49,409 nucleotides of DNA from Candidatus Hodarchaeaceae archaeon (lineage in GTDB: Archaea; Hadarchaeota; Hadarchaeia; Hadarchaeales; Hadarchaeaceae). Positions 40,495-49,409 of this stretch are shown piece by piece. Under the pieces are notes generated by a model. It searched no databases and was not told where the DNA came from. It saw only the letters and a program-made list of their open reading frames with translations. The DNA is taken from positions 1 through 49,409 of the forward strand of contig JASEGJ010000007.1 of assembly GCA_030018135.1 (NCBI GenBank), in the 5' to 3' direction. Position 1 is the first letter of the stretch; every line of letters begins with the position of its first letter. A program made the position numbers and the translations under genes.

Positions 40495-41538
40495 CTATAC
40501 CTCAGGCGTTTGGAGCAACGGGGCTTCGTCAGAAAACAAGCGAGGGGCCGCTACCTTTTTTGCTTCAACGAGCATTACTGCACCATACCATCGAACGCCA
40601 ATTGCTTTAAAATTATGTTTTTTCAGCATTTCTGCAACCTCGTCGCTGTTGAAGAACCGGACCCGGTGTCCCACCCTTTCGCTAACGTAGAAAAACGCCC
40701 TCATCAGGGGGTTTGGCCTCGGCGGATAGCAAACGATGCTCACCAATAGCTTGGAATCATCCTTTAAGACCCTCGACATCTCAGCCAACGCCTTTTCTGG
40801 TTGCGGAAACAAGTTGAGCGAAGCTTGGCAGGTCAAGCCGTCGAAAGTTTTGTCCTTGAATGGCAACCCCTCGGCATCGCCATTTAAGAAGGTGATGTTC
40901 TTCAAACCCCTTCGCTCGGCCTTCCTCTTCCCCAGCTTAAGCATTTCCAGGGCGATGTCGATCCCAAAAATTTGACCGCGTGGGCCGACCGTCCTGCTCA
41001 GCTCCCTCGCAACCAGCCCCGTCCCAGTGGCGACATCGAGAAATATCTCGCCCCCGCCGGAGCTGGCCATCTTGGCCGTGATCCTAGCGAGCCCTTGATA
41101 CGAAAAGCCGTAGACAATAGATGGGACGATCAACCTTCCCCACTCGTACATGAAGGCCGTCCGGGCGAAATCCTCCTCTATAAATTTTTTCGATATATAG
41201 CTCCTTTCTTCGGGGCTCAACTCCTCGTATTTCAATTCCTTGATGGCCCGGCCGCAGTTGGGGCACAGCACGATTTCGCCCCTGAGGCCGACGAAGGATG
41301 ACCAGGGCTCCCGAACGGCCTCAACCTGCCTCTTGCACCCATCGCAAAATTGGATATTTTTAGGGGGTTTTTCCTCCAGCGTGGGGATCCCGTCTTCGAT
41401 GATGTAATCGTTCCCGCAGCGCTTACATGCGATTTCTCCGCGCAATATCTCCTGCCCCTCTCGCTCGCGAATGCTCAAGCTAAAATCCGAGCTTTTGCAT
41501 GTTGGGCAAAGCAGGTACCGAACGATCTCTCTTTTCAT
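40495..41538 (-). CDS. Class I SAM methyltransferase (UbiE/MenG-like) with N-terminal Trm112-like and zinc-ribbon domains
   Basis: LLCPTCK..IACKRCG..YIIEDGIP, CDGC..CPNC, LDVATGTG, GDAEGLPF..FD and EMSRVLK. Confidence 0.82.
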   Translation of the reverse strand: MKREIVRYLLCPTCKSSDFSLSIREREGQEILRGEIACKRCGNDYIIEDGIPTLEEKPPKNIQFCDGCKRQVEAVREPWSSFVGLRGEIVLCPNCGRAIKELKYEELSPEERSYISKKFIEEDFARTAFMYEWGRLIVPSIVYGFSYQGLARITAKMASSGGGEIFLDVATGTGLVARELSRTVGPRGQIFGIDIALEMLKLGKRKAERRGLKNITFLNGDAEGLPFKDKTFDGLTCQASLNLFPQPEKALAEMSRVLKDDSKLLVSIVCYPPRPNPLMRAFFYVSERVGHRVRFFNSDEVAEMLKKHNFKAIGVRWYGAVMLVEAKKVAAPRLFSDEAPLLQTPEV

Positions 41539-41819
41539 CCTTTCCCACTTCAAAAAGGTCGCCCCACGGATATATTTGATGATGGTTTGTGGCAAAATCG
41601 AGTTCGCTCAAAGGAGCAGGCATAGAACGCCATGCCATCAAAAGCCCTATTGGCATCCTCAGGGCAACTTTCATGTGCAGGTTAAATACCTGTTGATCGC
41701 CAACGAACGCTACTTGACATCTTTCTCCTGTTTTTCTGTGTCGACAAAAATGGTGCCCCACCGATAAATCCGGCGGAAACTACTTATGGGCTCTTGGAGA
41801 GGCTAGAGAGGGTAATTCA

Positions 41820-42812
41820 ATGGCTGATGAGTACGAGAGGGCGGCGGACGAGGTGAGGAAGCTGTTTCAAGAGAGGGGCGGTAAAATTTTGGAGGATTTG
41901 ACGGCTAGCATCTTGGGGGAAAAAATCGAATGCGACGAAACCAAGGAGGCGTTATCCCACTTCGCGTCCTACTGGCGCGATCTCGTCAGGCCCTCGCTGG
42001 TCTCGCTAGCTTGCGAGGCGGTGGGCGGGGATCCCTCGGTCGTCGCCCCGATAGGAAAGTCCCTGAGCCTCCTCAGCGGAGCCACGGACGTACACGACGA
42101 CATAATAGACAGGACGATGACGAAGGAGAAGAGAAACACCGTCCTCGGAGGGTTCGGGGGCGATATTGCCCTGCTGGCCGGGGATGCCCTGATCTTCAAG
42201 GGATTTGCGGAGTTCTTCGAGGGCCTCATGAAATTGGAGATCCCGCCCGAGAAAAAGTCTGCCGTAGTTCGCGCGGTCAAGGAGCTATATTTCGAGATGT
42301 GCGATGGCGAAGCCCTGGAGCTGAGGTTCAGGGCTCGGACCGACGTTGAGCCGGAAGAATACCTTCGAGTGGTGAGGAAGAAAGCCGCAGATATCGAAGC
42401 CTTGACGCGCGTTGGGGCGATGCTGGGCGGGGGGAGTGAGGAACAAACAAAGACTCTTGGGGAGTACGGTAGGCTTTTGGGCATGATTGTACTCTTGAGA
42501 AACGACCTCGAGGACTTACTGAATTTCGACGCCGTGGACTCGAGGATAACAAACGAGAGCCTTCCGCTACCCATACTTTATGCTCTGAAAAACGATGAAA
42601 AAAAGGCAGGTATCCTTGCCATTTTGAAAAATGGGGAAGTAAAAGGGGCGGAAGCTGAAAGACTATTAAAATTAGTTTCGGAAGCCGGAGGACTGGACAA
42701 GCTTTGGGAAATGTTTAGGGGGCTCAAGGCTCAAGCTAACAAAAAGGTTGGAAATAAAAAAATATTTAAAACTATTCTAGAAGCAACCGTTCCCGAGAGC
42801 CCTGAGATCTAG
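41820..42812 (+). CDS. Polyprenyl-synthetase-family protein with ComQ-like degenerate motifs
   Basis: FARM HDDIID (42093-42110), ALLAGDAL, and second motif NDLED (42501-42515). Canonical GGKRxR and RRG are absent. Confidence 0.8.
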   Translation: MADEYERAADEVRKLFQERGGKILEDLTASILGEKIECDETKEALSHFASYWRDLVRPSLVSLACEAVGGDPSVVAPIGKSLSLLSGATDVHDDIIDRTMTKEKRNTVLGGFGGDIALLAGDALIFKGFAEFFEGLMKLEIPPEKKSAVVRAVKELYFEMCDGEALELRFRARTDVEPEEYLRVVRKKAADIEALTRVGAMLGGGSEEQTKTLGEYGRLLGMIVLLRNDLEDLLNFDAVDSRITNESLPLPILYALKNDEKKAGILAILKNGEVKGAEAERLLKLVSEAGGLDKLWEMFRGLKAQANKKVGNKKIFKTILEATVPESPEI

Positions 42813-42830
42813 CCCATAATTGGCAAGACC

Positions 42831-42875
42831 CTAGAGCCAAACTCGTACTGGTGAATACTTCAGCCTCATTCCCAT
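42831..42875 (-). CDS. Candidate peptide precursor (MG)MRLKYSPVRVWL
   Basis: AAAAGGAG RBS 8 nt before ATG 42869 (2 nt before ATG 42875); upstream GAAAGG-TTTATTTAT BRE/TATA-like element; Trp at the penultimate position. Confidence 0.55.
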   Translation of the reverse strand: MGMRLKYSPVRVWL

Positions 42876-42885
42876 TTCTCCTTTT

Positions 42886-42937
42886 GTATGTATGTTGCAC
42901 ACATATACATTAAAAAAAAACCATAAATAAACCTTTC
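42886..42937 (-). promoter_or_regulatory. Promoter of the peptide ORF with an imperfect inverted repeat
   Basis: Minus-strand TTTATTTAT at 42923-42931 preceded by GAAAGG; ATGTATGT-TGCAC-ACATATACAT imperfect palindrome near the predicted start site. Confidence 0.45.
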
Positions 42938-42978
42938 TATACTGGCTCAGGTGAAGAAAAAAGGGGTGGCATGAGAAA

Positions 42979-44184
42979 ATGGTGCTGTTTAAATGGCTCT
43001 TTGCCCATCGGAAGGGTTTCTTGCCAATGTTTTTTTTGATACTCAATTCGGTAACGTGGTTTTACCTAATGGTATTCATGATAGAGTTCATGATGCCGGA
43101 TGTGAATCCTTTTGCGTCCTCGCTTCGCTGGCTGTTCTATATGACCACGGCGGTATCCATGTTGATCGGGCCCGTCGTCGTCGGAAGGGTCAGTAAAGCA
43201 CGGTTCCTCTCCTTTTGGATCCTCTTAGGCGTTATTTTTTCGTTATTTCCTATGATTTTGCTTACATCTAGCGAATACGAAGTCGCGGCGCTGCTGATCC
43301 TCTGGGGTTTTGCATTCGGGATCGGCTTCCCCTCCTGCCTCGCCCTAATACCCACTCTCACGAGTGTTGAGGAAAGGGGGCGAGCGGGAGGTGCGGTATT
43401 TTTTGCAACTTATGCCATCTCACCATTATTGATAATTGCTATCAAGCAACTTGATGTTTTTTCAGGTTCTTTCGTGCTTGCAGCATGGAGAAGTCTCTGC
43501 ATTGGAGCGTTTTTGTTTAGTTTTAATGTGGATGTCGCATCACTTAGACCCGTTTCTTATTGTTCTATCCTCCGCCGTAGTATGTTCCTCCTTTATTTTC
43601 TCCCTTGGTTAGCTTTCTGTTTGATAAATTATTTTGAAAGACAGGTTTTGGAACAGTTTTTTGGTAAATCCATGATAGCTTTGATGGTTACCGTTGAGCT
43701 CGTAGTTGGGAGTCTTTTTTGTCTTATAGGCGGATGGCTTATGGATTTGAAAGGAAGAAAGTGGGTAATCATCATGGGACTTGTGGCATTGGGGTTAGGG
43801 TATGCCTTGCTCGGCCTTTTTCCGCTTATTTCTGCCGTCCAAGCATTCTATATGATTATGGATGGTATCGCTTTCGGCATCTTTACGGTGGCGTTTATAT
43901 TTGTCGTATGGGGAGACATTTCAAACGGTGAACGTGGAGAGAAATTTTACGGAATAGGAGGTCTCCCTGTTCTATTAGCTCCGACGTTGTCCCTGTTCGC
44001 CGCCGCTTGGCTTAGAACGCTAGACGCGAGCAACGCCTTCTCGCTCGCCAGCTTCTTCCTCTTCCTGGCGGTCATCCCGATCTTCTTCGCCCCCGAGCTG
44101 CTTCCGGAGTGCGTGCTAAAGGAGAGGGAGCTCAGGAGGTACGTCGAGGAGGTCAAGAAGGTCGCTGGTCGGGGCGGGGCTTGA
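42979..44184 (+). CDS. MFS-like polytopic membrane protein
   Basis: About 12 hydrophobic segments; GGWLMDLKGRK motif A-like, EERGRAGG and ERGEKFYG; charged C-terminal tail. Confidence 0.8.
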   Translation: MVLFKWLFAHRKGFLPMFFLILNSVTWFYLMVFMIEFMMPDVNPFASSLRWLFYMTTAVSMLIGPVVVGRVSKARFLSFWILLGVIFSLFPMILLTSSEYEVAALLILWGFAFGIGFPSCLALIPTLTSVEERGRAGGAVFFATYAISPLLIIAIKQLDVFSGSFVLAAWRSLCIGAFLFSFNVDVASLRPVSYCSILRRSMFLLYFLPWLAFCLINYFERQVLEQFFGKSMIALMVTVELVVGSLFCLIGGWLMDLKGRKWVIIMGLVALGLGYALLGLFPLISAVQAFYMIMDGIAFGIFTVAFIFVVWGDISNGERGEKFYGIGGLPVLLAPTLSLFAAAWLRTLDASNAFSLASFFLFLAVIPIFFAPELLPECVLKERELRRYVEEVKKVAGRGGA

Positions 44185-44971
44185 GCGCGTCCTTGGCCTT
44201 CTCCACTTGCTTGACGACCTCAACCAAGCTCTTCGAAAACGGGTGGTCCGGCTTCTCCAGCGCAATGATCGTCGACCTCTCCAGCCCGAGGACGTCGCAA
44301 TAGCAGGGCAGAAGGTCGATCACCGGCAGTTTGAAGGCCTTTTTGAATTGATTCGCCAGCTTCTTCCTCATCTCCTCGTTTATCGTCAACTGCGCGGGTA
44401 TCTTGTTCATCAAGACCATGGCCCGCTTCTCGAGCAGGCCGTAGAGCTCGCCCACCATGCCCTGGGCGCCCGCGACGTCGGACGAGTCCCAAGTCGAGAC
44501 CACCAGCACCACGTCCGCCGCGGCGATCGCGTTTATGCTCGCGTAGCTAAGGCCCGGGCCGGTGTCGAGGATCACGTAGTCCATTGCCAACTTCTTGAGC
44601 AGGATGTCCCTCAGCGAGAGCAGGCGGTGCAGCGCCCGCATCTCCCACTTGCCGTTCTTCGTCACGATCTCCCTTATCGCTTGCATCGACGGATTTGCCA
44701 GGGCCACGAGCAGCCTCCCCTCGGTGCCCTTTTCCTTCGAGAAATCCTTCAATATGTCGATCGGCTCGCACCTGCCCTCCAAAAAGTCGTTCATCCAGTA
44801 CTTTCCGTCCGCCGCGAAGGTGGCGTCGAGGCTGGGCGCGCGCAGGTCCAGATCTAGCAGGCAGACGTTCTTGCCTTGGCTCGCGAATATCGCCGCCAAG
44901 TTGGTGGAGATCAGGCTCTTTCCCGTACCTCCCTTGTAGCTGTGCACCGCTATGACCATGCCCGGGTTCAA
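44153..44971 (-). CDS. MinD/ParA-family ATPase
   Basis: Deviant Walker A KGGTGKS, DLDLRAPSL, LDTGPG and MNK. Confidence 0.9.
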   Translation of the reverse strand: MNPGMVIAVHSYKGGTGKSLISTNLAAIFASQGKNVCLLDLDLRAPSLDATFAADGKYWMNDFLEGRCEPIDILKDFSKEKGTEGRLLVALANPSMQAIREIVTKNGKWEMRALHRLLSLRDILLKKLAMDYVILDTGPGLSYASINAIAAADVVLVVSTWDSSDVAGAQGMVGELYGLLEKRAMVLMNKIPAQLTINEEMRKKLANQFKKAFKLPVIDLLPCYCDVLGLERSTIIALEKPDHPFSKSLVEVVKQVEKAKDALKPRPDQRPS

Positions 44972-45399
44972 GCTAATCCTCCCCCTTTGGGCTCTGGTCG
45001 TTGTTCGACCCCCATCGAGTCGCCCTCCGCCACGAAATACACCCGCTTGCCCTCTCTTTGTCTCTTCAGGTAACCCATCCTCGCCAGCTGGTTCAGGTAC
45101 GCGCTCTCGATCGCCCTGGCCCTGCCGGTCTCCTTCGCCACGTCGTCGGCCATCGCCTTCCCCAATTTCACTATCGCGATGGCGCTCTTCCTCAGGTGGT
45201 CCGGAAGGGAGAGGAGGGTCATGATGTCGAGGACCTCGCCCACCCTCGTCAGTTCCTCGGCCTTTTTGAGCAGGGGCCTTTTACCGACATCGCTGATCAA
45301 AACATCTATCTTCCTCTCTATTCGGCTCATCCACTCCCTGAGCTCATCCCGTTTGAACGGCTTTGCTTCCTCTGAACCGCGGATTTTCCGCATTTTCAT
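44968..45399 (-). CDS. Winged-helix transcriptional regulator with N-terminal coiled coil
   Basis: ADDVAKETGRARAIESAYLNQLARMGYL..REGKRVYF; overlaps the MinD/ParA gene. Confidence 0.8.
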   Translation of the reverse strand: MKMRKIRGSEEAKPFKRDELREWMSRIERKIDVLISDVGKRPLLKKAEELTRVGEVLDIMTLLSLPDHLRKSAIAIVKLGKAMADDVAKETGRARAIESAYLNQLARMGYLKRQREGKRVYFVAEGDSMGVEQRPEPKGGGLA

Positions 45400-45475
45400 T
45401 CCTGTTTAACACCCCTACACCTGCGTTTAAAGCGGTTGTGAAGCTATCCTCTAGATTTATCCTCCACCTCGAAAA

Positions 45476-45507
45476 TGGCCGCTCGTCCGGGGACTCGAAC
45501 CCGGGTT
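45476..45507 (-). other. tRNA 3'-end-like fragment (T-arm to CCA), possible att remnant
   Basis: The minus strand reads AACCCGGGTTCGAGTCCCCGGACGAGCGGCCA; no matching 5' half or D-arm upstream. Confidence 0.5.
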
Positions 45508-45579
45508 TGTGGGCGTTTCACTGAGACTCCTGAGTTGTTTTTTGCGATATCCCCCAAAGAGGGGCTTTCGGGCCCCAAC

Positions 45580-46035
45580 TCAAATCTCGCCCCTTTCTTT
45601 CCCGCCCCGAGCTTGCCCCTTAAGGCCCCGAACCAAAAATTTCTTACAATCCGAGTGAACCTTTCTCGCAGAGCGCAGGGCCTCCGGGGCGTAGTCTTTG
45701 AAGTACTCGGCCGTGATGCCCTGCTCAAACCCGTAGCCAGCGAGCCCCCGTTGCTCCGCAAGCTTTGCCACGACATCCGAGATCTCGGGGATCTCCTTCC
45801 TGAACCACGGCGGGATACCCTCCCGATCGGCCAACTGCAGAAAAACATCACTCACATCGTGCTCCTTCGGGAAATCTATGCCGACGGAGAGCAGCACCGC
45901 CTTGGCCGATTGTTCGACCGCCATCTGGGCGCTATAGACCACATCGTCCCACCGCGCGTCCTCGAGCGCCCTCTCGGCACCCTGAAGCCACCTACCCGCC
46001 CGATCCAGTACCTGCCGCGCTATCGCCGAATTCAT
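45580..46035 (-). CDS. HEPN-domain protein
   Basis: VVYSAQMAVEQSAKAVL..FPKEHDV and RGLAGYG; ATG 46035 follows GGAGG and overlaps the MNT stop. Confidence 0.85.
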   Translation of the reverse strand: MNSAIARQVLDRAGRWLQGAERALEDARWDDVVYSAQMAVEQSAKAVLLSVGIDFPKEHDVSDVFLQLADREGIPPWFRKEIPEISDVVAKLAEQRGLAGYGFEQGITAEYFKDYAPEALRSARKVHSDCKKFLVRGLKGQARGGKERGEI

Positions 46036-46784
46036 TTGAGAACCTCCCCCGCAACGCTTGGGACCCGAACCCAATAAAACTCGCCGCTTGGGGTGGTCAC
46101 CCGCCTCGTCCCCTCCTCGATGAGCTTCTTCCTGACGCCTTCGAGAACTCCGGTGAGAAACCCATCCCTTTCAAAGAGGATTATCCCGTCCAGGCAGGCG
46201 TCCAAGTACATCCGATGGAAACGCAGGGCTTCGTCCTTGTCGAGGGGGTAATGCTGGATGATCGGCACGAAGCCCGCCCGCACCGCTCGTGAGAATTCCC
46301 CCGTATTCCGGAGTTCGTCCCTGAGCTTCAACAGCTCCTCGCTTCGCTCCCAAGTTGGTTTTTTCCACCCCTCCACCACGATGAGCAGGTCGATATCGCT
46401 GTCAGGGGTCCAATCTCCTCGAGCCACGGAACCGAAGACCAGGACGCCGAGGAGCCCATCCTTAAAGTGGCCCAACAAAATCTTACAATAACGCTCGAGG
46501 ACGTCCGCAAATGCGCGATGGGGGATGCGGTCGACGTTCGTGATCTCGGCCCCCGGCACCTCGATCAGCTCAAACCAGCTTTTGGCGAGTCCCGCGGCCC
46601 GCCTCCCCTTTTCGGAGAGGGAGTAGATCTTGTCCCTGGATTCCACCATGCCGAGCGAGCTGAGTTCCCTCAACTTCTTGCTCAGGGTGCGTGGGTTCTT
46701 GAGGGATTCCATGAGTTCGCCGAACCTGGCTGCCCCCTTGTGCTCGAGCTCGAGGAGGAGAACGCTAGCATACCTATCGATCAT
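46032..46784 (-). CDS. wHTH (HxlR-like) fused to a minimal nucleotidyltransferase
   Basis: RFGEL..PRTLSKKLRELSSLG..YSLSEKG, then VFGSVARGDWTPDSDIDLL. Confidence 0.85.
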   Translation of the reverse strand: MIDRYASVLLLELEHKGAARFGELMESLKNPRTLSKKLRELSSLGMVESRDKIYSLSEKGRRAAGLAKSWFELIEVPGAEITNVDRIPHRAFADVLERYCKILLGHFKDGLLGVLVFGSVARGDWTPDSDIDLLIVVEGWKKPTWERSEELLKLRDELRNTGEFSRAVRAGFVPIIQHYPLDKDEALRFHRMYLDACLDGIILFERDGFLTGVLEGVRKKLIEEGTRRVTTPSGEFYWVRVPSVAGEVLK

Positions 46785-46822: not shown

Positions 46823-46988
46823 AATATTTTTTTCAGGCCCGATCTCGCCCAACTACATAAGTGGGCGGAAGACCGACGAGGGGTACCTATCCTCCTTAAT
46901 TGAAACATGATCGGGCACGGGAAGTTGGTGAAATTCGACGGGCAACAGAAGATTAACAGCAAACGGTTTACATTTCATGTGGGCTACG

Positions 46989-47405
46989 ATGTCGCTGGAA
47001 GAAAAAATAAAGGAACTCCTCGGACGAGAGAGGCACATCGAACTAGCGTACCTTTTCGGCTCGGCGGCACGGGGGAAAATTAGCAAGCTGAGCGATGTCG
47101 ACGTAGCTGTTTACCTCGATGAGTCCCTCTCGAGCGATGAAAGGTTCAAACTGCAACTCAGACTGATGGGCGAGCTGGCCTCATTGCTCAGGACCGGTAA
47201 AATAGACCTCGTTGTGATGAACGATGCTCCTCCCGTCTTGAACTATGAGATAATCAGGTTCGAGCCCATCTACGTTAGGGATACATCAAAAAAGGTTAGG
47301 GTCGAACATAGCATAATGTCAAGGTACTTGGACAGGAGGTACTATGAGAAACGGATGCTCGAGACATTCTTAAGGAGGGTTTCCGAGAAGGGGTTGGATT
47401 GGTGA
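46989..47405 (+). CDS. MntA-type nucleotidyltransferase antitoxin
   Basis: AYLFGSAARG..LSDVDVAV and IDLVVMNDAPP. Confidence 0.9.
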   Translation: MSLEEKIKELLGRERHIELAYLFGSAARGKISKLSDVDVAVYLDESLSSDERFKLQLRLMGELASLLRTGKIDLVVMNDAPPVLNYEIIRFEPIYVRDTSKKVRVEHSIMSRYLDRRYYEKRMLETFLRRVSEKGLDW

Positions 47406-47409
47406 TTCG

Positions 47410-47831
47410 ATGGAAGCAAAGGAGAGCATAGCTAGAAAACTATGATGATGAAAAGGTGCACAGATTTCCTCCGAGCCAACCAGCACGTGAGCTCGGAAGA
47501 ACTCGAGAAAAACTACGCGCTGAGGAGCGCCATCGAGCGAAACTTTCAAGTTGCGATAGAGGCTGCCCTTGACACAGCGGAGGTGATCATCTCGGAGGAG
47601 GGTTTCGAGAAGCCCGAGGATTATCGGGGGGCAATTTTGGAGCTCGGGCGGGGAGGGATTCTCCCGCCGGAATTTGCGGAAAGGTTTGCACCAGCGGCCG
47701 GCTTTAGAAACATATTGGTTCACGGTTATGCGGAAGTCGACATAAAGAAATTGCACGAGCTTTTGCTGGAAGGGCCGAAGGATTTCGATGAGTTCGCGAG
47801 ACACGTAGCAAAGCATCTCGAAAAGGGGTAG
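47410..47831 (+). CDS. HepT/DUF86 HEPN RNase toxin with an apparent N-terminal 1-nt frameshift
   Basis: AIERNFQVAIE and FRNILVHGY (Rx4H). The RBS-linked ATG 47410 (MEAKESIARKL*) is out of frame with the main ORF 47442-47831. Confidence 0.8.
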
Positions 47832-47848: not shown

Positions 47849-48847
47849 TCAGGCTGGCCCGAGCTTGTAATACGGGCTGACCCTGTAAATGATGGCGAAG
47901 GCTATTAGCAATCCGCATATGATCATGGCCGCCCATGCGGCTGCGAGCAGGTTGTCGGCCTCCGCGCCGGGTGCCGCGACGAGCACTAAATCCCCGCTCA
48001 AATCGGCCAGCGGGCCCCGATGGGTCAACACCGTCAGCCAGGCGTTATCGCCGAACAACTCGGCAACCTCATGGCCGATCCGCTGGAGCTCGTCGATGCT
48101 CACGCTCAGCTCGAGGGCGACGTTTTCCTGACCCACCTCGAAGGACTCGATGTCGAAGCCAGCCGCCCGCACGGATCGCGCATCCAGCCTGTCCCGCGTC
48201 AGGCAGAATAGGGTTATCTCGGTGGTGCCGGAGGCCAGCGAGGAGATCTCCAGCGGGTAGTAGAGGAAGTCGCTCTCGAACGAGTAGAGGAGGGGCTCGA
48301 CGCTTTTCCTGCCCTCGTCCAAGTCGATGAGGTCGAAGACCCAATAATTCACGCCCCTTCGGATGTACCTCGCCGCCAGGTTTTCTAGCCCGCCGAAGGC
48401 GATGCCCTGCGCGAGGCCCCTGTCCGTCAAGAAGTTCTCGGCCCAATCGATGAGCTCCAGAGCGTCGTTGGCTCTAACCGCGGTGATATCGTGGGCACCG
48501 ATCCGCTGGTGGAATACCACCTCGATCGGCGCCTCGCCAAGCACCCCCCTCTTGGCAAACGCGTCTCCGGCGTATTTGTTGACCAAATTTTGGATTTCGA
48601 CGAAGGAGTTGAAGTCGCCCGCCTCCACCTCGGGCAGGGATGGGAACGGCATGATTTCTAGGGCCCAGGTGTTCTCGCTCGCGTAAACGTCTGTGGAGAG
48701 GATCATTACCTCTCGCTCGCCGTTCCACGCGATGATCGCCTTTTGACCGGGCTCCCAAACCGAGACCGGCCCGGGCGCCACCATACCTCGGTCTGCTGCA
48801 ACGGTCGACGCCGCCGCGGAGAGGAGCATCGGGACGACTAGGATCAA
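47849..48847 (-). CDS. Secreted DUF2330-like protein with C-terminal membrane anchor
   Basis: Signal peptide, EPGQKAIIAWNGEREVMILSTD, IMPFPSLP, YYPLEISS and a C-terminal hydrophobic helix. Confidence 0.65.
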   Translation of the reverse strand: MILVVPMLLSAAASTVAADRGMVAPGPVSVWEPGQKAIIAWNGEREVMILSTDVYASENTWALEIMPFPSLPEVEAGDFNSFVEIQNLVNKYAGDAFAKRGVLGEAPIEVVFHQRIGAHDITAVRANDALELIDWAENFLTDRGLAQGIAFGGLENLAARYIRRGVNYWVFDLIDLDEGRKSVEPLLYSFESDFLYYPLEISSLASGTTEITLFCLTRDRLDARSVRAAGFDIESFEVGQENVALELSVSIDELQRIGHEVAELFGDNAWLTVLTHRGPLADLSGDLVLVAAPGAEADNLLAAAWAAMIICGLLIAFAIIYRVSPYYKLGPA

Positions 48848-49079
48848 AATGTACGGGGGCTTACCCGTGGTCGCACCCTTTCTGTTTTAGAGCTAGCTCG
48901 GCTTAAATTTTATTTCATCTTTGAAACCACCCCCAAAGGCAAAAATCCCGGTCGGTGCGTTTTGAGTTTTTGGGCAGCTTTCGGATAAAGGGACCCGCAA
49001 GAGCGGGATGGTAGCTCTCCCTATCGACTCGAGCAGGTATTTTTGAACCGAGACGAAATTGTTTATCTTGCCCCCCTCA

Positions 49080-49280
49080 CCCGCCCGCCCTCCTCGGCCA
49101 GCGCATAAACCTCCTGCGCGGGAATCGAACTTCATCGCCACAAGCAGCCCCTTGCCCTCGAGCGAGTAAAGCAGCGGGTAGACCGCGCCCTGGCTGAGGA
49201 AGGTGCGGTATCGCTGGTAGATTGACCTGATCACATTGTGGCCGGTTAAAAGGTTGTGGTAAGGCGCAAATGAAAAAAAA
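49080..49280 (-). pseudogene. PadR-family wHTH regulator remnant (boundaries approximate)
   Basis: LTGHNVIRSIYQRYRTFLSQGAVYPLLYSLEGKGLL matches the PadR core; the flanking N-terminus and wing are degraded. Confidence 0.6.
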
Positions 49281-49409
49281 AAATTTTGATACACATGTAT
49301 CAAAAAAGCATGTTGCCGAAGGTGAAAGAAAAGTTTTAAAAATCCCCCGGGGGTGGGTTTTCCTCAGGATTATTGATTTAAACAACCAAGTCCCATGGAT
49401 TTTGGAGGC

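Follow-up and report, generated by a model that had tools for sequence, protein, structure and literature searches.

A conserved micro-gene beside a divergent polyprenyl-synthase paralogue: a candidate prenylated-peptide cassette in Hadarchaeota and Bathyarchaeia

Gene Organization of the Locus

The stretch of DNA analysed here, referred to as the window, is the 49,409-nucleotide (nt) contig JASEGJ010000007.1 (positions 1 to 49,409 of the forward strand, assembly GCA_030018135.1) of Candidatus Hodarchaeaceae archaeon, which is part of a 1.1-Mb genome of the Hadesarchaea type. Between positions 41,820 and 45,399 it carries a cassette of five genes, in which a micro-gene of 12 codons lies between the gene for a divergent enzyme of the isoprenyl diphosphate synthase (IPPS) fold and the gene for a transporter of the major facilitator superfamily (MFS). 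The micro-gene is conserved beyond chance in related loci, and the cassette may produce and export a prenylated peptide. A preliminary description of the sequence had named five elements, a polyprenyl-synthase homologue tail-to-tail with a tiny Trp-containing peptide open reading frame (ORF), an MFS-like membrane protein divergent from it, a MinD/ParA ATPase and a winged helix-turn-helix (wHTH) regulator, and the ORF positions and Pfam matches recover every one of them in place.

The enzyme gene (41820-42812, plus strand) encodes a 330-residue paralogue of IPPS fold that matches Pfam PF00348 (polyprenyl_synt) and is a candidate peptide prenyltransferase. The micro-gene (42831-42869, minus strand, 12 codons) encodes the candidate precursor peptide MRLKYSPVRVWL and is tail-to-tail with the enzyme gene, as their stop codons are 18 nt apart on opposite strands. 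Its Shine-Dalgarno region AAAAGGAGAA (42876-42884, minus strand) places GGAG 8 nt before the ATG, and an in-frame ATG at 42875 would extend the peptide by Met-Gly. The micro-gene and the MFS gene (42979-44184, plus strand, 401 residues, Pfam MFS_1), which encodes a candidate exporter, are divergent and have in common an AT-rich TATA-like box ACCATAAATAAACC at 42920-42933, the putative promoter of both. Between this box and the micro-gene is an imperfect, operator-like palindrome TGTATGTATGTTGCACACATATACA (42885-42909) with TGTnnnACA on both strands, from 42893 (plus) and from 42901 (minus). The gene for a MinD/ParA-family ATPase (44153-44971, minus strand, 272 residues) is convergent on the MFS gene, and its start overlaps by 4 nt with the gene for a small, TrmB-like wHTH protein (44968-45399, minus strand, 143 residues), a candidate regulator. 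There are no histidine kinase or ComP-ComA-type genes at the locus, and the 38-49 kb part of the window has no kinase gene.

Conservation of the Micro-Gene

A lone ORF of 12 codons with one Trp is within what chance produces; its conservation is beyond chance. Relatives of the enzyme were fetched with their surroundings from genomes and metagenomes, giving 130 loci, and the MFS gene follows the enzyme gene on the same strand, after a gap of about 150-450 nt, in 95 sources (the window and some duplicates included). The non-redundant set consists of 87 Hadesarchaea and Bathyarchaeia loci with both the enzyme gene and the MFS gene, and every one of the 87 has a micro-ORF of 9-20 codons between the two, on the opposite strand. 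By an automated peptide score the minus strand of the gap reaches at least 8 in 84/87 loci and at least 6 in 85/87, compared with 6/87 for the plus strand of the same gaps and 13/435 for shuffled gaps. Both loci missed by the score carry the peptide on inspection: the peptide of L064 lies outside the scoring regular expression, and the scan window was misplaced in L029, whose sequence is identical to that of L032.

In 23 more loci the enzyme gene is complete and there is no MFS match on the same strand. Three of them have less than 90 nt past the enzyme stop, which leaves a partial peptide only in L116 and makes L055 and L071 not assessable. The peptide is found by the automated score in 17 of the remaining 20 and by inspection in two more (L062 and L119). 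The last, L066 (5413-8993), has the whole block of micro-gene, MFS, ATPase and wHTH genes turned around with respect to the enzyme gene. There the micro-gene is still divergent from the MFS gene and is now upstream of the enzyme gene on the same strand; thus it stays with the MFS gene in the inverted block too.

The loci closest to the window share the motif [ST]P[VI]xxW followed by one to five residues, on the minus strand, in all 11 distinct cases (the Hades type). Trp is at Pro+4 in 11/11 of these and is the penultimate residue in 9/11, the window included. The Bathyarchaeia enzymes are only 31-47% identical to that of the window and are accompanied by a related ORF, placed and oriented as in the window, in which a Lys/Arg-rich N-terminus is followed by P-[V/I/M/T]-R and a tail of 3-9 residues. 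Comparative sequence evidence of this kind argues strongly that 42831-42869 (minus strand) is a true micro-gene that codes for protein and that two archaeal phyla have in common. It is an archaeal gene of about 12 codons that gene callers have overlooked. A genome-wide scan for micro-ORFs of the Hades type gave no second copy in the window's genome.

Several individual loci deserve mention. L047 has two identical micro-gene copies (MAQKKQKPTRIYGV) in tandem, about 230 nt apart, between the enzyme and MFS genes; like L018, it comes from a metagenome-assembled genome labelled Candidatus Bathyarchaeum. A full cassette of enzyme, peptide (MEKKKRRVPIRFGGG), MFS and radical S-adenosylmethionine (rSAM) genes is found on contig DASPTR010000162.1 (L042), which is binned with the bacterium Candidatus Acidoferrum, either by mis-binning or as a result of transfer. 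The contigs of L008 and L010 (G008:C8 and G009:C18, from one genus) end at the same point in the enzyme gene, at residue 237, and in G009 the remainder of the cassette begins another contig. Strain-level variation over the 3' end of the enzyme gene, the peptide and the 5' end of the MFS gene may be what breaks these assemblies.

Sequence Features of the Micro-Peptide

The peptides have a common design: the N-terminus is basic, the core reads Pro-[Val/Ile]-[Arg], and the tail of 3-9 residues is hypervariable, hydrophobic and rich in Trp. All four Pro codons are used for the core proline (CCA 43, CCT 20, CCC 10, CCG 7), and the core arginine draws on both Arg codon families (AGA 37, CGA 24, AGG 7, CGG 5, CGC 3, CGT 2). 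This synonymous turnover at the core implies selection on the peptide and not on the DNA. In a dozen loci a stop is present one codon before the Met, so that the ORF there can be no longer than 12-16 residues.

The tails evolve differently from the core. Among 382 tail residues there are 86 Trp, 36 Phe and 24 Tyr, and charged residues are almost absent; 64/85 tails contain Trp and 79/85 contain at least one aromatic residue. When 32 pairs of loci with enzymes at least 80% identical are compared, 25 agree in the core tripeptide and only 7 agree in the tail. Tails differ even where the enzymes are 90-97% identical, for example VIA and ILA at 97% enzyme identity and IYNI and LYYV at 94%. A candidate precursor gene beside those for a candidate tailoring enzyme and exporter, and a peptide whose leader is conserved and whose core is hypervariable, follow the generic logic of peptides that are made by the ribosome and modified after translation (RiPPs).

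Control Region of the Micro-Gene

Upstream of the micro-gene, in the reading direction of the peptide, the family consensus consists of a TATA-like TTTTAAAG and, after about 8 nt, TGTacAACAcaaATACAG, followed by a GGAG-like site and then the start codon. In 80/85 loci the 150 nt upstream of the Pro codon of the peptide contain the word TGTnnnACA, at a density of 1.44 copies per locus compared with 0.039 in shuffled sequences. It is absent upstream of the enzyme (0/87), rSAM (0/39), MinD-like ATPase (0/17) and LeuRS (0/25) genes. It is present upstream of 20/52 neighbouring PadR genes and of 4/13 wHTH genes, the window included, where TGTTAAACA is located just upstream of the wHTH gene start. 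The link between TGTnnnACA and the wHTH promoters is weak, and that with the PadR promoters is stronger. TGTnnnACA is a putative operator, for which the wHTH and PadR proteins are candidate binders. In the window's genome as a whole the extended operator motif has 4 matches, against 2.8 expected, and of these only the cassette's own two are meaningful.

Another conserved word, ATATCGTAAGA[CT]TTAATA, is located upstream of Bathyarchaeia wHTH genes (L018, L023, L046, L047, L060, L065, L067, L093 and L097) and is absent from the window.

The Enzyme Family

The window enzyme matches PF00348 with an E-value of 5.5e-25 (88.5 bits). Its best NCBIfam match, IdsA_Meth (IdsA), reaches 126.3 bits against a cut-off of 468, and its scores are far under the cut-offs for all 14 NCBIfam families listed for it. 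The genome has three PF00348 genes (256, 144 and 89 bits), of which the cassette enzyme is the weakest. The same division is found in the five Bathyarchaeia genomes checked, all of which have a canonical synthase of 207-266 bits elsewhere and a family member of 82-97 bits.

The motif counts given here are taken from an alignment of 105 family sequences. The side of the active site that binds the allylic donor is preserved. The first aspartate-rich motif (FARM), D93-D94-I-I-D97 in the window, reads VHDDIID in 105/105 sequences; K102 is kept in 103/105, and K188 and the last Asp of the second aspartate-rich motif (SARM) in 105/105. The motifs which we take to hold the diphosphate of isopentenyl diphosphate (IPP) are replaced. 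Region I, GGKRLRP, has become xWxDxx[H/R]P, with Trp in 96/105 and Asp at the Lys position in 80/105; RRG has become K102 followed by a variable residue, with loss of the second Arg; and TVH has become TV[F/Y]. The other two paralogues in the window's genome retain GKR and RR. The second motif in the window enzyme, N228-D229-L-E-D232, is an NDxxD pseudo-SARM, and Arg precedes the motif (position -1, R227 in the window) in 100/105 sequences. From these patterns we infer that the family has kept the ability to ionise an allylic diphosphate and has lost that of condensing it with IPP, and the charge reversal in the acceptor site would suit a basic peptide.

The AlphaFold2 (AF2) model of the enzyme (pLDDT 95.6) is a plain, all-helical IPPS fold, and all Foldseek matches to it are IPPS enzymes. 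The nearest is Pyrococcus geranylgeranyl diphosphate (GGPP) synthase (1wy0, TM 0.84), while the tryptophan farnesyltransferase Ord1 is 34th (TM 0.75). The family profile run against the sequences of solved structures gives the same order, with 136.7 bits for the Pyrococcus enzyme and 94.6 bits for Ord1. In a quick maximum-likelihood tree the 105 family members stand apart from the genome's canonical paralogues on a long branch (SH-aLRT 99), and the Hades-type clade (13 rows, support 100) is nested among Bathyarchaeia sequences. The enzyme is an extra paralogue and appears to be derived from GGPP synthase.

A second polyprenyl-synthase-like gene is found in tandem with the family member at L067/L068, L048 and L095. 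Divergence at the C-terminus was considered as a signature of strain-specific peptide types (pherotypes) and set aside: residues 271-330 are the least conserved of the family, and this is usual for IPPS enzymes.

Transporter, ATPase, Regulators and Distribution of the Cassette

The transporter scores 47 bits against MFS_1 (cut-off 33.4) and has about 12 hydrophobic segments in a hydropathy scan. The best NCBIfam matches of an orthologue, all weak, are efflux proteins (EntS and Tet). The ATPase is above the cut-offs for AAA_31 (61 bits), ParA (55 bits) and CbiA (44 bits). It has a deviant Walker A motif, KGGTGKS, and HSYKGGTGK is invariant in 16/16 orthologues. Its nearest relatives among solved sequences are FleN proteins, deposited as 'transcriptional antiactivator' (E 4.8e-12). 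The wHTH protein scores 25.4 bits with a TrmB-like profile, slightly under the cut-off of 25.6, and its wHTH domain is strongly conserved over 13 orthologues. A complex prediction for the ATPase and the wHTH protein, run with alignments, gave no answer (score 0.00) and speaks neither for nor against binding.

The cassette exists in more than one version. In 56 non-redundant loci with at least 2.7 kb past the enzyme stop, the MFS gene is followed by an rSAM/SPASM gene on the same strand in 37, by the convergent ATPase gene in 14, by neither in 5 and by both in none. The wHTH gene accompanies the ATPase gene in 13 of the 14 loci having room for it, and PadR genes are located upstream in many Bathyarchaeia loci. 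The rSAM protein (for example L109:7818-8942) is a member of TIGR04084, with 310 bits against a cut-off of 225, and next in score come matches to peptide maturases, those for ranthipeptides and SCIFF among them. No member of TIGR04084 was found in the window's genome; where the gene is present, the micro-peptide is an obvious candidate substrate for its product.

Past the rSAM gene, a subset of Bathyarchaeia loci has convergent PAS-HisKA-HATPase kinase genes (L019:11709-14486, L109:8949-11138 and L026:12121-14463; 3/3 checked), which possibly encode a receptor or may be mere neighbourhood. A larger cluster of 'PAS' neighbours was rejected as a cassette part, as it consists of heterogeneous multi-PAS proteins joined by domain similarity.

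The enzyme is present in 7/65 Hadarchaeia genomes, which belong to 6 of the 19 genera. The MFS gene is found in 6/65 and the wHTH gene in 5/65, and the cases without MFS or wHTH are contigs that end inside the cassette. As the MFS and wHTH genes are found only in enzyme-bearing genomes, the five genes act as one patchy accessory unit in Hadarchaeia. The GC content of the cassette genes is 0.48-0.60, compared with 0.555 for the genome, and gives no clear sign of recent transfer.

Comparison with Known Systems

The peptide prenyltransferases of IPPS fold ('trans-IDS-like') described in PMC13290415, bioRxiv 10.64898/2026.08.29.745113 and PMC10853753 are ComQ, PalQ, the P domain of ChrPC and StheQ, and in these accounts all are bacterial and all act on Trp. 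The hallmarks given for them are a FARM, an NDxxx pseudo-SARM and a Gln just upstream of it (PMC13290415; bioRxiv 10.64898/2026.08.29.745113). The StheQ preprint names FARM plus NDxxD as the hallmark of the ComQ family (bioRxiv 10.64898/2026.08.29.745113), and the Gln is implicated in Trp recognition by the bacterial enzymes (PMC13290415). ComQ, PalQ and StheQ were set against the archaeal family by their description, and Ord1 by sequence and fold.

With ComQ/ComX, as it is described, the archaeal cassette shares an IPPS-fold enzyme beside a short-peptide gene with Trp near the C-terminus, the FARM and, in the window, the NDxxx pseudo-SARM. The products are small and variable in both, as ComX pheromones have 6-10 residues and no consensus (bioRxiv 10.64898/2026.08.29.745113) and the archaeal tails have 3-9. 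The archaeal locus differs in that it is without ComP and ComA, its precursor of 9-20 residues is almost leaderless, Trp is not universal, the peptide gene is on the opposite strand and divergent from an MFS exporter gene, and the enzyme is derived from GGPP synthase and does not have the Gln marker.

The StheQ/StheX system of the bacterium Sphaerobacter thermophilus, according to its description, has FARM plus N-D-x-x-D and a modified Trp second from the C-terminus, as in the window. StheX, however, has 69 residues, and in StheQ a Gln (Q212) stands three residues ahead of the pseudo-SARM, a position at which the archaeal family has T, L, I, S or M. The PalQ/PalX/PalP system of Paenibacillus alvei is described as a three-gene cluster with a prenyltransferase of the isoprenoid-synthase superfamily and a precursor with a C-terminal Trp (PMC10853753). 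The PalX core, DNVRRFFW, is basic and then aromatic and may be compared with the archaeal tails PVRFWWW and VVRFWL. In contrast to the archaeal cassette, the cluster as reported has an NHLP leader domain in PalX, a histidine kinase and no MFS gene, and PalQ forms its own remote sequence cluster (PMC10853753).

Ord1 (PDB 9V4G-J), an indole prenyltransferase of IPPS fold, resembles the family in its FARM, HDDIID, and in the Arg that directly precedes the second Asp-rich motif (IRDD, compared with LRDD, LRND or LREE in the family). It differs in that it is reported to act on free tryptophan and in having Q216, which is absent in the family. Ord1 is no nearer to the family than long-chain synthases are, and is farther than Pyrococcus GGPP synthase. 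The enzyme of Pyrococcus horikoshii (1wy0; IdsA) is the best match in sequence and fold, and is alike in length, all-helical structure, FARM and donor-site Lys; the family differs from archaeal GGPP synthases in its replaced region I, RRG and TVH and in being a patchy accessory paralogue. The rSAM/SPASM RiPP clusters of PapB and the SCIFF maturases are similar in their small precursors with a leader and a variable core, and a TIGR04084 gene is co-directional with the MFS gene in 37/56 of the archaeal loci, whereas the window cassette has no rSAM gene. Full-text searches, which covered a part of the literature and the main text of papers, gave no account of the cassette, of a TIGR04084 substrate or of archaeal IPPS-type peptide prenylation.

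The preliminary description had proposed an archaeal RiPP or peptide-pheromone locus akin to ComQ/ComX. Its RiPP-like character, with a polyprenyl-synthase homologue and a tiny Trp-containing precursor, is supported by the conserved leader, the variable core and the synteny in 87/87 loci, and the confinement of the wHTH gene to enzyme-bearing Hadarchaeia genomes also speaks for the description. It had also expected the homologous loci to carry adjacent, Shine-Dalgarno-bearing ORFs with Trp near the C-terminus; this expectation holds, with the short ORF there throughout and Trp in 64/85 tails. As to the kinship with ComQ, the window enzyme does have FARM and NDxxD, and beyond this the likeness fades: Asn is at the first pseudo-SARM position in only 12/105 sequences, the Gln is never found, an Arg precedes the motif, and the nearest relatives are archaeal GGPP synthases. 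For these reasons the cassette is not filed in the ComQ family.

Proposed Function and Alternative Explanations

The reading we favour, with a probability of roughly 0.55, is that the cassette is a patchy accessory RiPP-like unit, its micro-peptide being prenylated by the enzyme and then carried out of the cell by the MFS protein, a system similar to ComQ/ComX and of independent origin. Since the family is nearest to archaeal GGPP synthases, the cassette looks independently recruited from an archaeal enzyme. In the proposed mechanism the basic peptide would sit in the remodelled acceptor site of the enzyme, and a prenyl group, probably from GGPP or farnesyl diphosphate (FPP), which are common archaeal pools, would be moved onto the tail. 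The target in the window subtype would be the penultimate Trp. The MFS protein would then export the product, and the divergent transcription of the peptide and MFS genes may be set via TGTnnnACA, with the wHTH protein as candidate regulator here and PadR in many Bathyarchaeia loci. The MinD-like ATPase perhaps modulates the wHTH protein. Outside the cell the exported lipopeptide might either be a signal specific to the strain or work as a cationic antimicrobial, and the data fit both alike.

A number of observations weigh against prenylation of the peptide. By sequence and modelled fold the family appears closest to GGPP synthase and not to Ord1. The assignment of region I, RRG and TVH to the IPP diphosphate site comes from the structural literature on FPP synthase (FPPS) and GGPP synthase (GGPPS), and for the archaeal family it is a putative one. 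The first SARM position is D in 58 sequences, E in 33, N in 12, A in 1 and H in 1, and Gln is found upstream of the motif in 0/105, position -3 being T, L, I, S or M. Among the tails, 21/85 have no Trp and 6/85 no aromatic residue, and thus Trp is not a universal acceptor. No protease gene is conserved in the cassette, and the rSAM/SPASM enzyme, where present, could be the real modifier of the peptide. The archaeal precursors are almost leaderless, compared with the 69 residues described for StheX and the NHLP domain described for PalX. Finally, Ord1 is reported to show that IPPS-fold enzymes are able to use a free amino acid (PMC13290415).

Several of these points support the strongest alternative, in which the micro-gene is real and its peptide is not the substrate of the enzyme. 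The enzyme would then prenylate a small molecule, for example a free amino acid, or make a terpenoid that the MFS protein exports. The peptide would serve another purpose, as substrate of the rSAM/SPASM enzyme where there is one, as a cationic antimicrobial that needs no modification, or in modulating the transporter or the enzyme. We consider this possible, although distinctly less probable than prenylation of the peptide. Ord1, which farnesylates free tryptophan according to PMC13290415, has in common with the family the Arg before the second motif, and the absence of the bacterial Gln marker, the tails without Trp (21/85) or without any aromatic acceptor (6/85) and the maturase homologue that follows the MFS gene in 37/56 loci are all in line with such a division of labour. 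It accounts less well for the finding that peptide, enzyme and MFS genes keep company in all loci that could be assessed, even in the rearranged L066, and that the window variant keeps the peptide even though there is no rSAM gene at the locus and no TIGR04084 member in the genome. The Lys-to-Asp change in the acceptor site (80/105) would also be easier to reconcile with a basic peptide than with a small molecule that is neutral or anionic.

A more specific form of peptide prenylation is that the near-leaderless peptides are strain-specific ('pherotype') quorum signals of Bathyarchaeia and Hadarchaeia, read back via TGTnnnACA by PadR or by the wHTH/MinD pair. This we regard as a tentative proposal and rather doubtful.

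The micro-ORF could instead be cis-regulatory, either as a translated sensor or arrest peptide or as the beginning of an antisense transcript that would extend into the 3' part of the enzyme gene and tune its expression. The two genes converge, the stop of the ORF being at -30 to +60 nt from that of the enzyme in most loci and overlapping it in some, and the Pro-x-Arg core and basic N-terminus are reminiscent of known ribosome-stalling peptides. A leader peptide, however, would have no same-strand downstream gene to control, and arrest peptides are conserved at the C-terminus, where the tail of this one is hypervariable and enriched in Trp. In L066, moreover, the ORF follows the MFS block and is not convergent on the enzyme gene, and a cis-regulatory role seems improbable to us. 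The idea that the enzyme is an ordinary GGPP or FPP lipid synthase beside an unrelated transporter and a chance ORF, for which its fold, its nearest solved structure and public annotations of close homologues as geranylgeranyl pyrophosphate synthase might speak, is very hard to maintain against the canonical synthases elsewhere in the window's genome and in 5/5 Bathyarchaeia genomes, the scores far under every NCBIfam equivalog cut-off, the family-wide replacement of region I, the restriction of the gene to 7/65 Hadarchaeia genomes and the conservation of the ORF far past chance.

If the enzyme does modify the micro-peptide, the cassette would represent an independent invention of peptide prenylation from an archaeal lipid-precursor enzyme, and a new class of RiPP with a precursor gene among the smallest known. 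The trio of enzyme, micro-peptide and transporter genes recurs in over a hundred archaeal genome fragments, which suggests that these archaea may produce small peptides with a lipid tag, of which only bacterial examples are known to date. Modification of the micro-peptide would also provide a handle on signalling or antagonism between cells in two abundant, uncultured lineages of subsurface archaea. Should the quorum-signal proposal be correct, it would be the first peptide quorum sensing in archaea as well as the first archaeal class of prenylated RiPPs, independent of ComQXPA. The peptide is short enough for synthesis and the enzyme is a single soluble protein.

Neighbouring Genes and Other Observations

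On the left of the cassette, a gene divergent from the enzyme gene (40495-41595, minus strand) encodes a methyltransferase with an N-terminal Trm112-like zinc ribbon and a UbiE/COQ5-type domain. The same gene and the Lrp regulator also flank the enzyme in two other Hadarchaeia genomes (L008 and L010) and not in the Bathyarchaeia loci, and the methyltransferase is probably outside the cassette.

Just upstream of the wHTH gene, a stretch at 45475-45520 (minus strand) resembles the 3' part of a tRNA, with a T-arm GGGTTCGAGTCCCC, an acceptor strand and an encoded CCA. ARAGORN and Rfam made no calls on 41-47 kb, this stretch included, and there is no second copy of it in the window's genome. Possible origins are an attachment site of which this is the remnant, or a split tRNA of which it is one half.

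The right flank has two nucleotidyltransferase/HEPN (MNT-HepT-like) gene pairs, at 45580-46784 (minus strand) and 46977-47831 (plus strand). Beyond these are a gene for a DUF2330 protein (47849-48847) and then a weak PadR-like ORF (48893-49303, E 0.0011).

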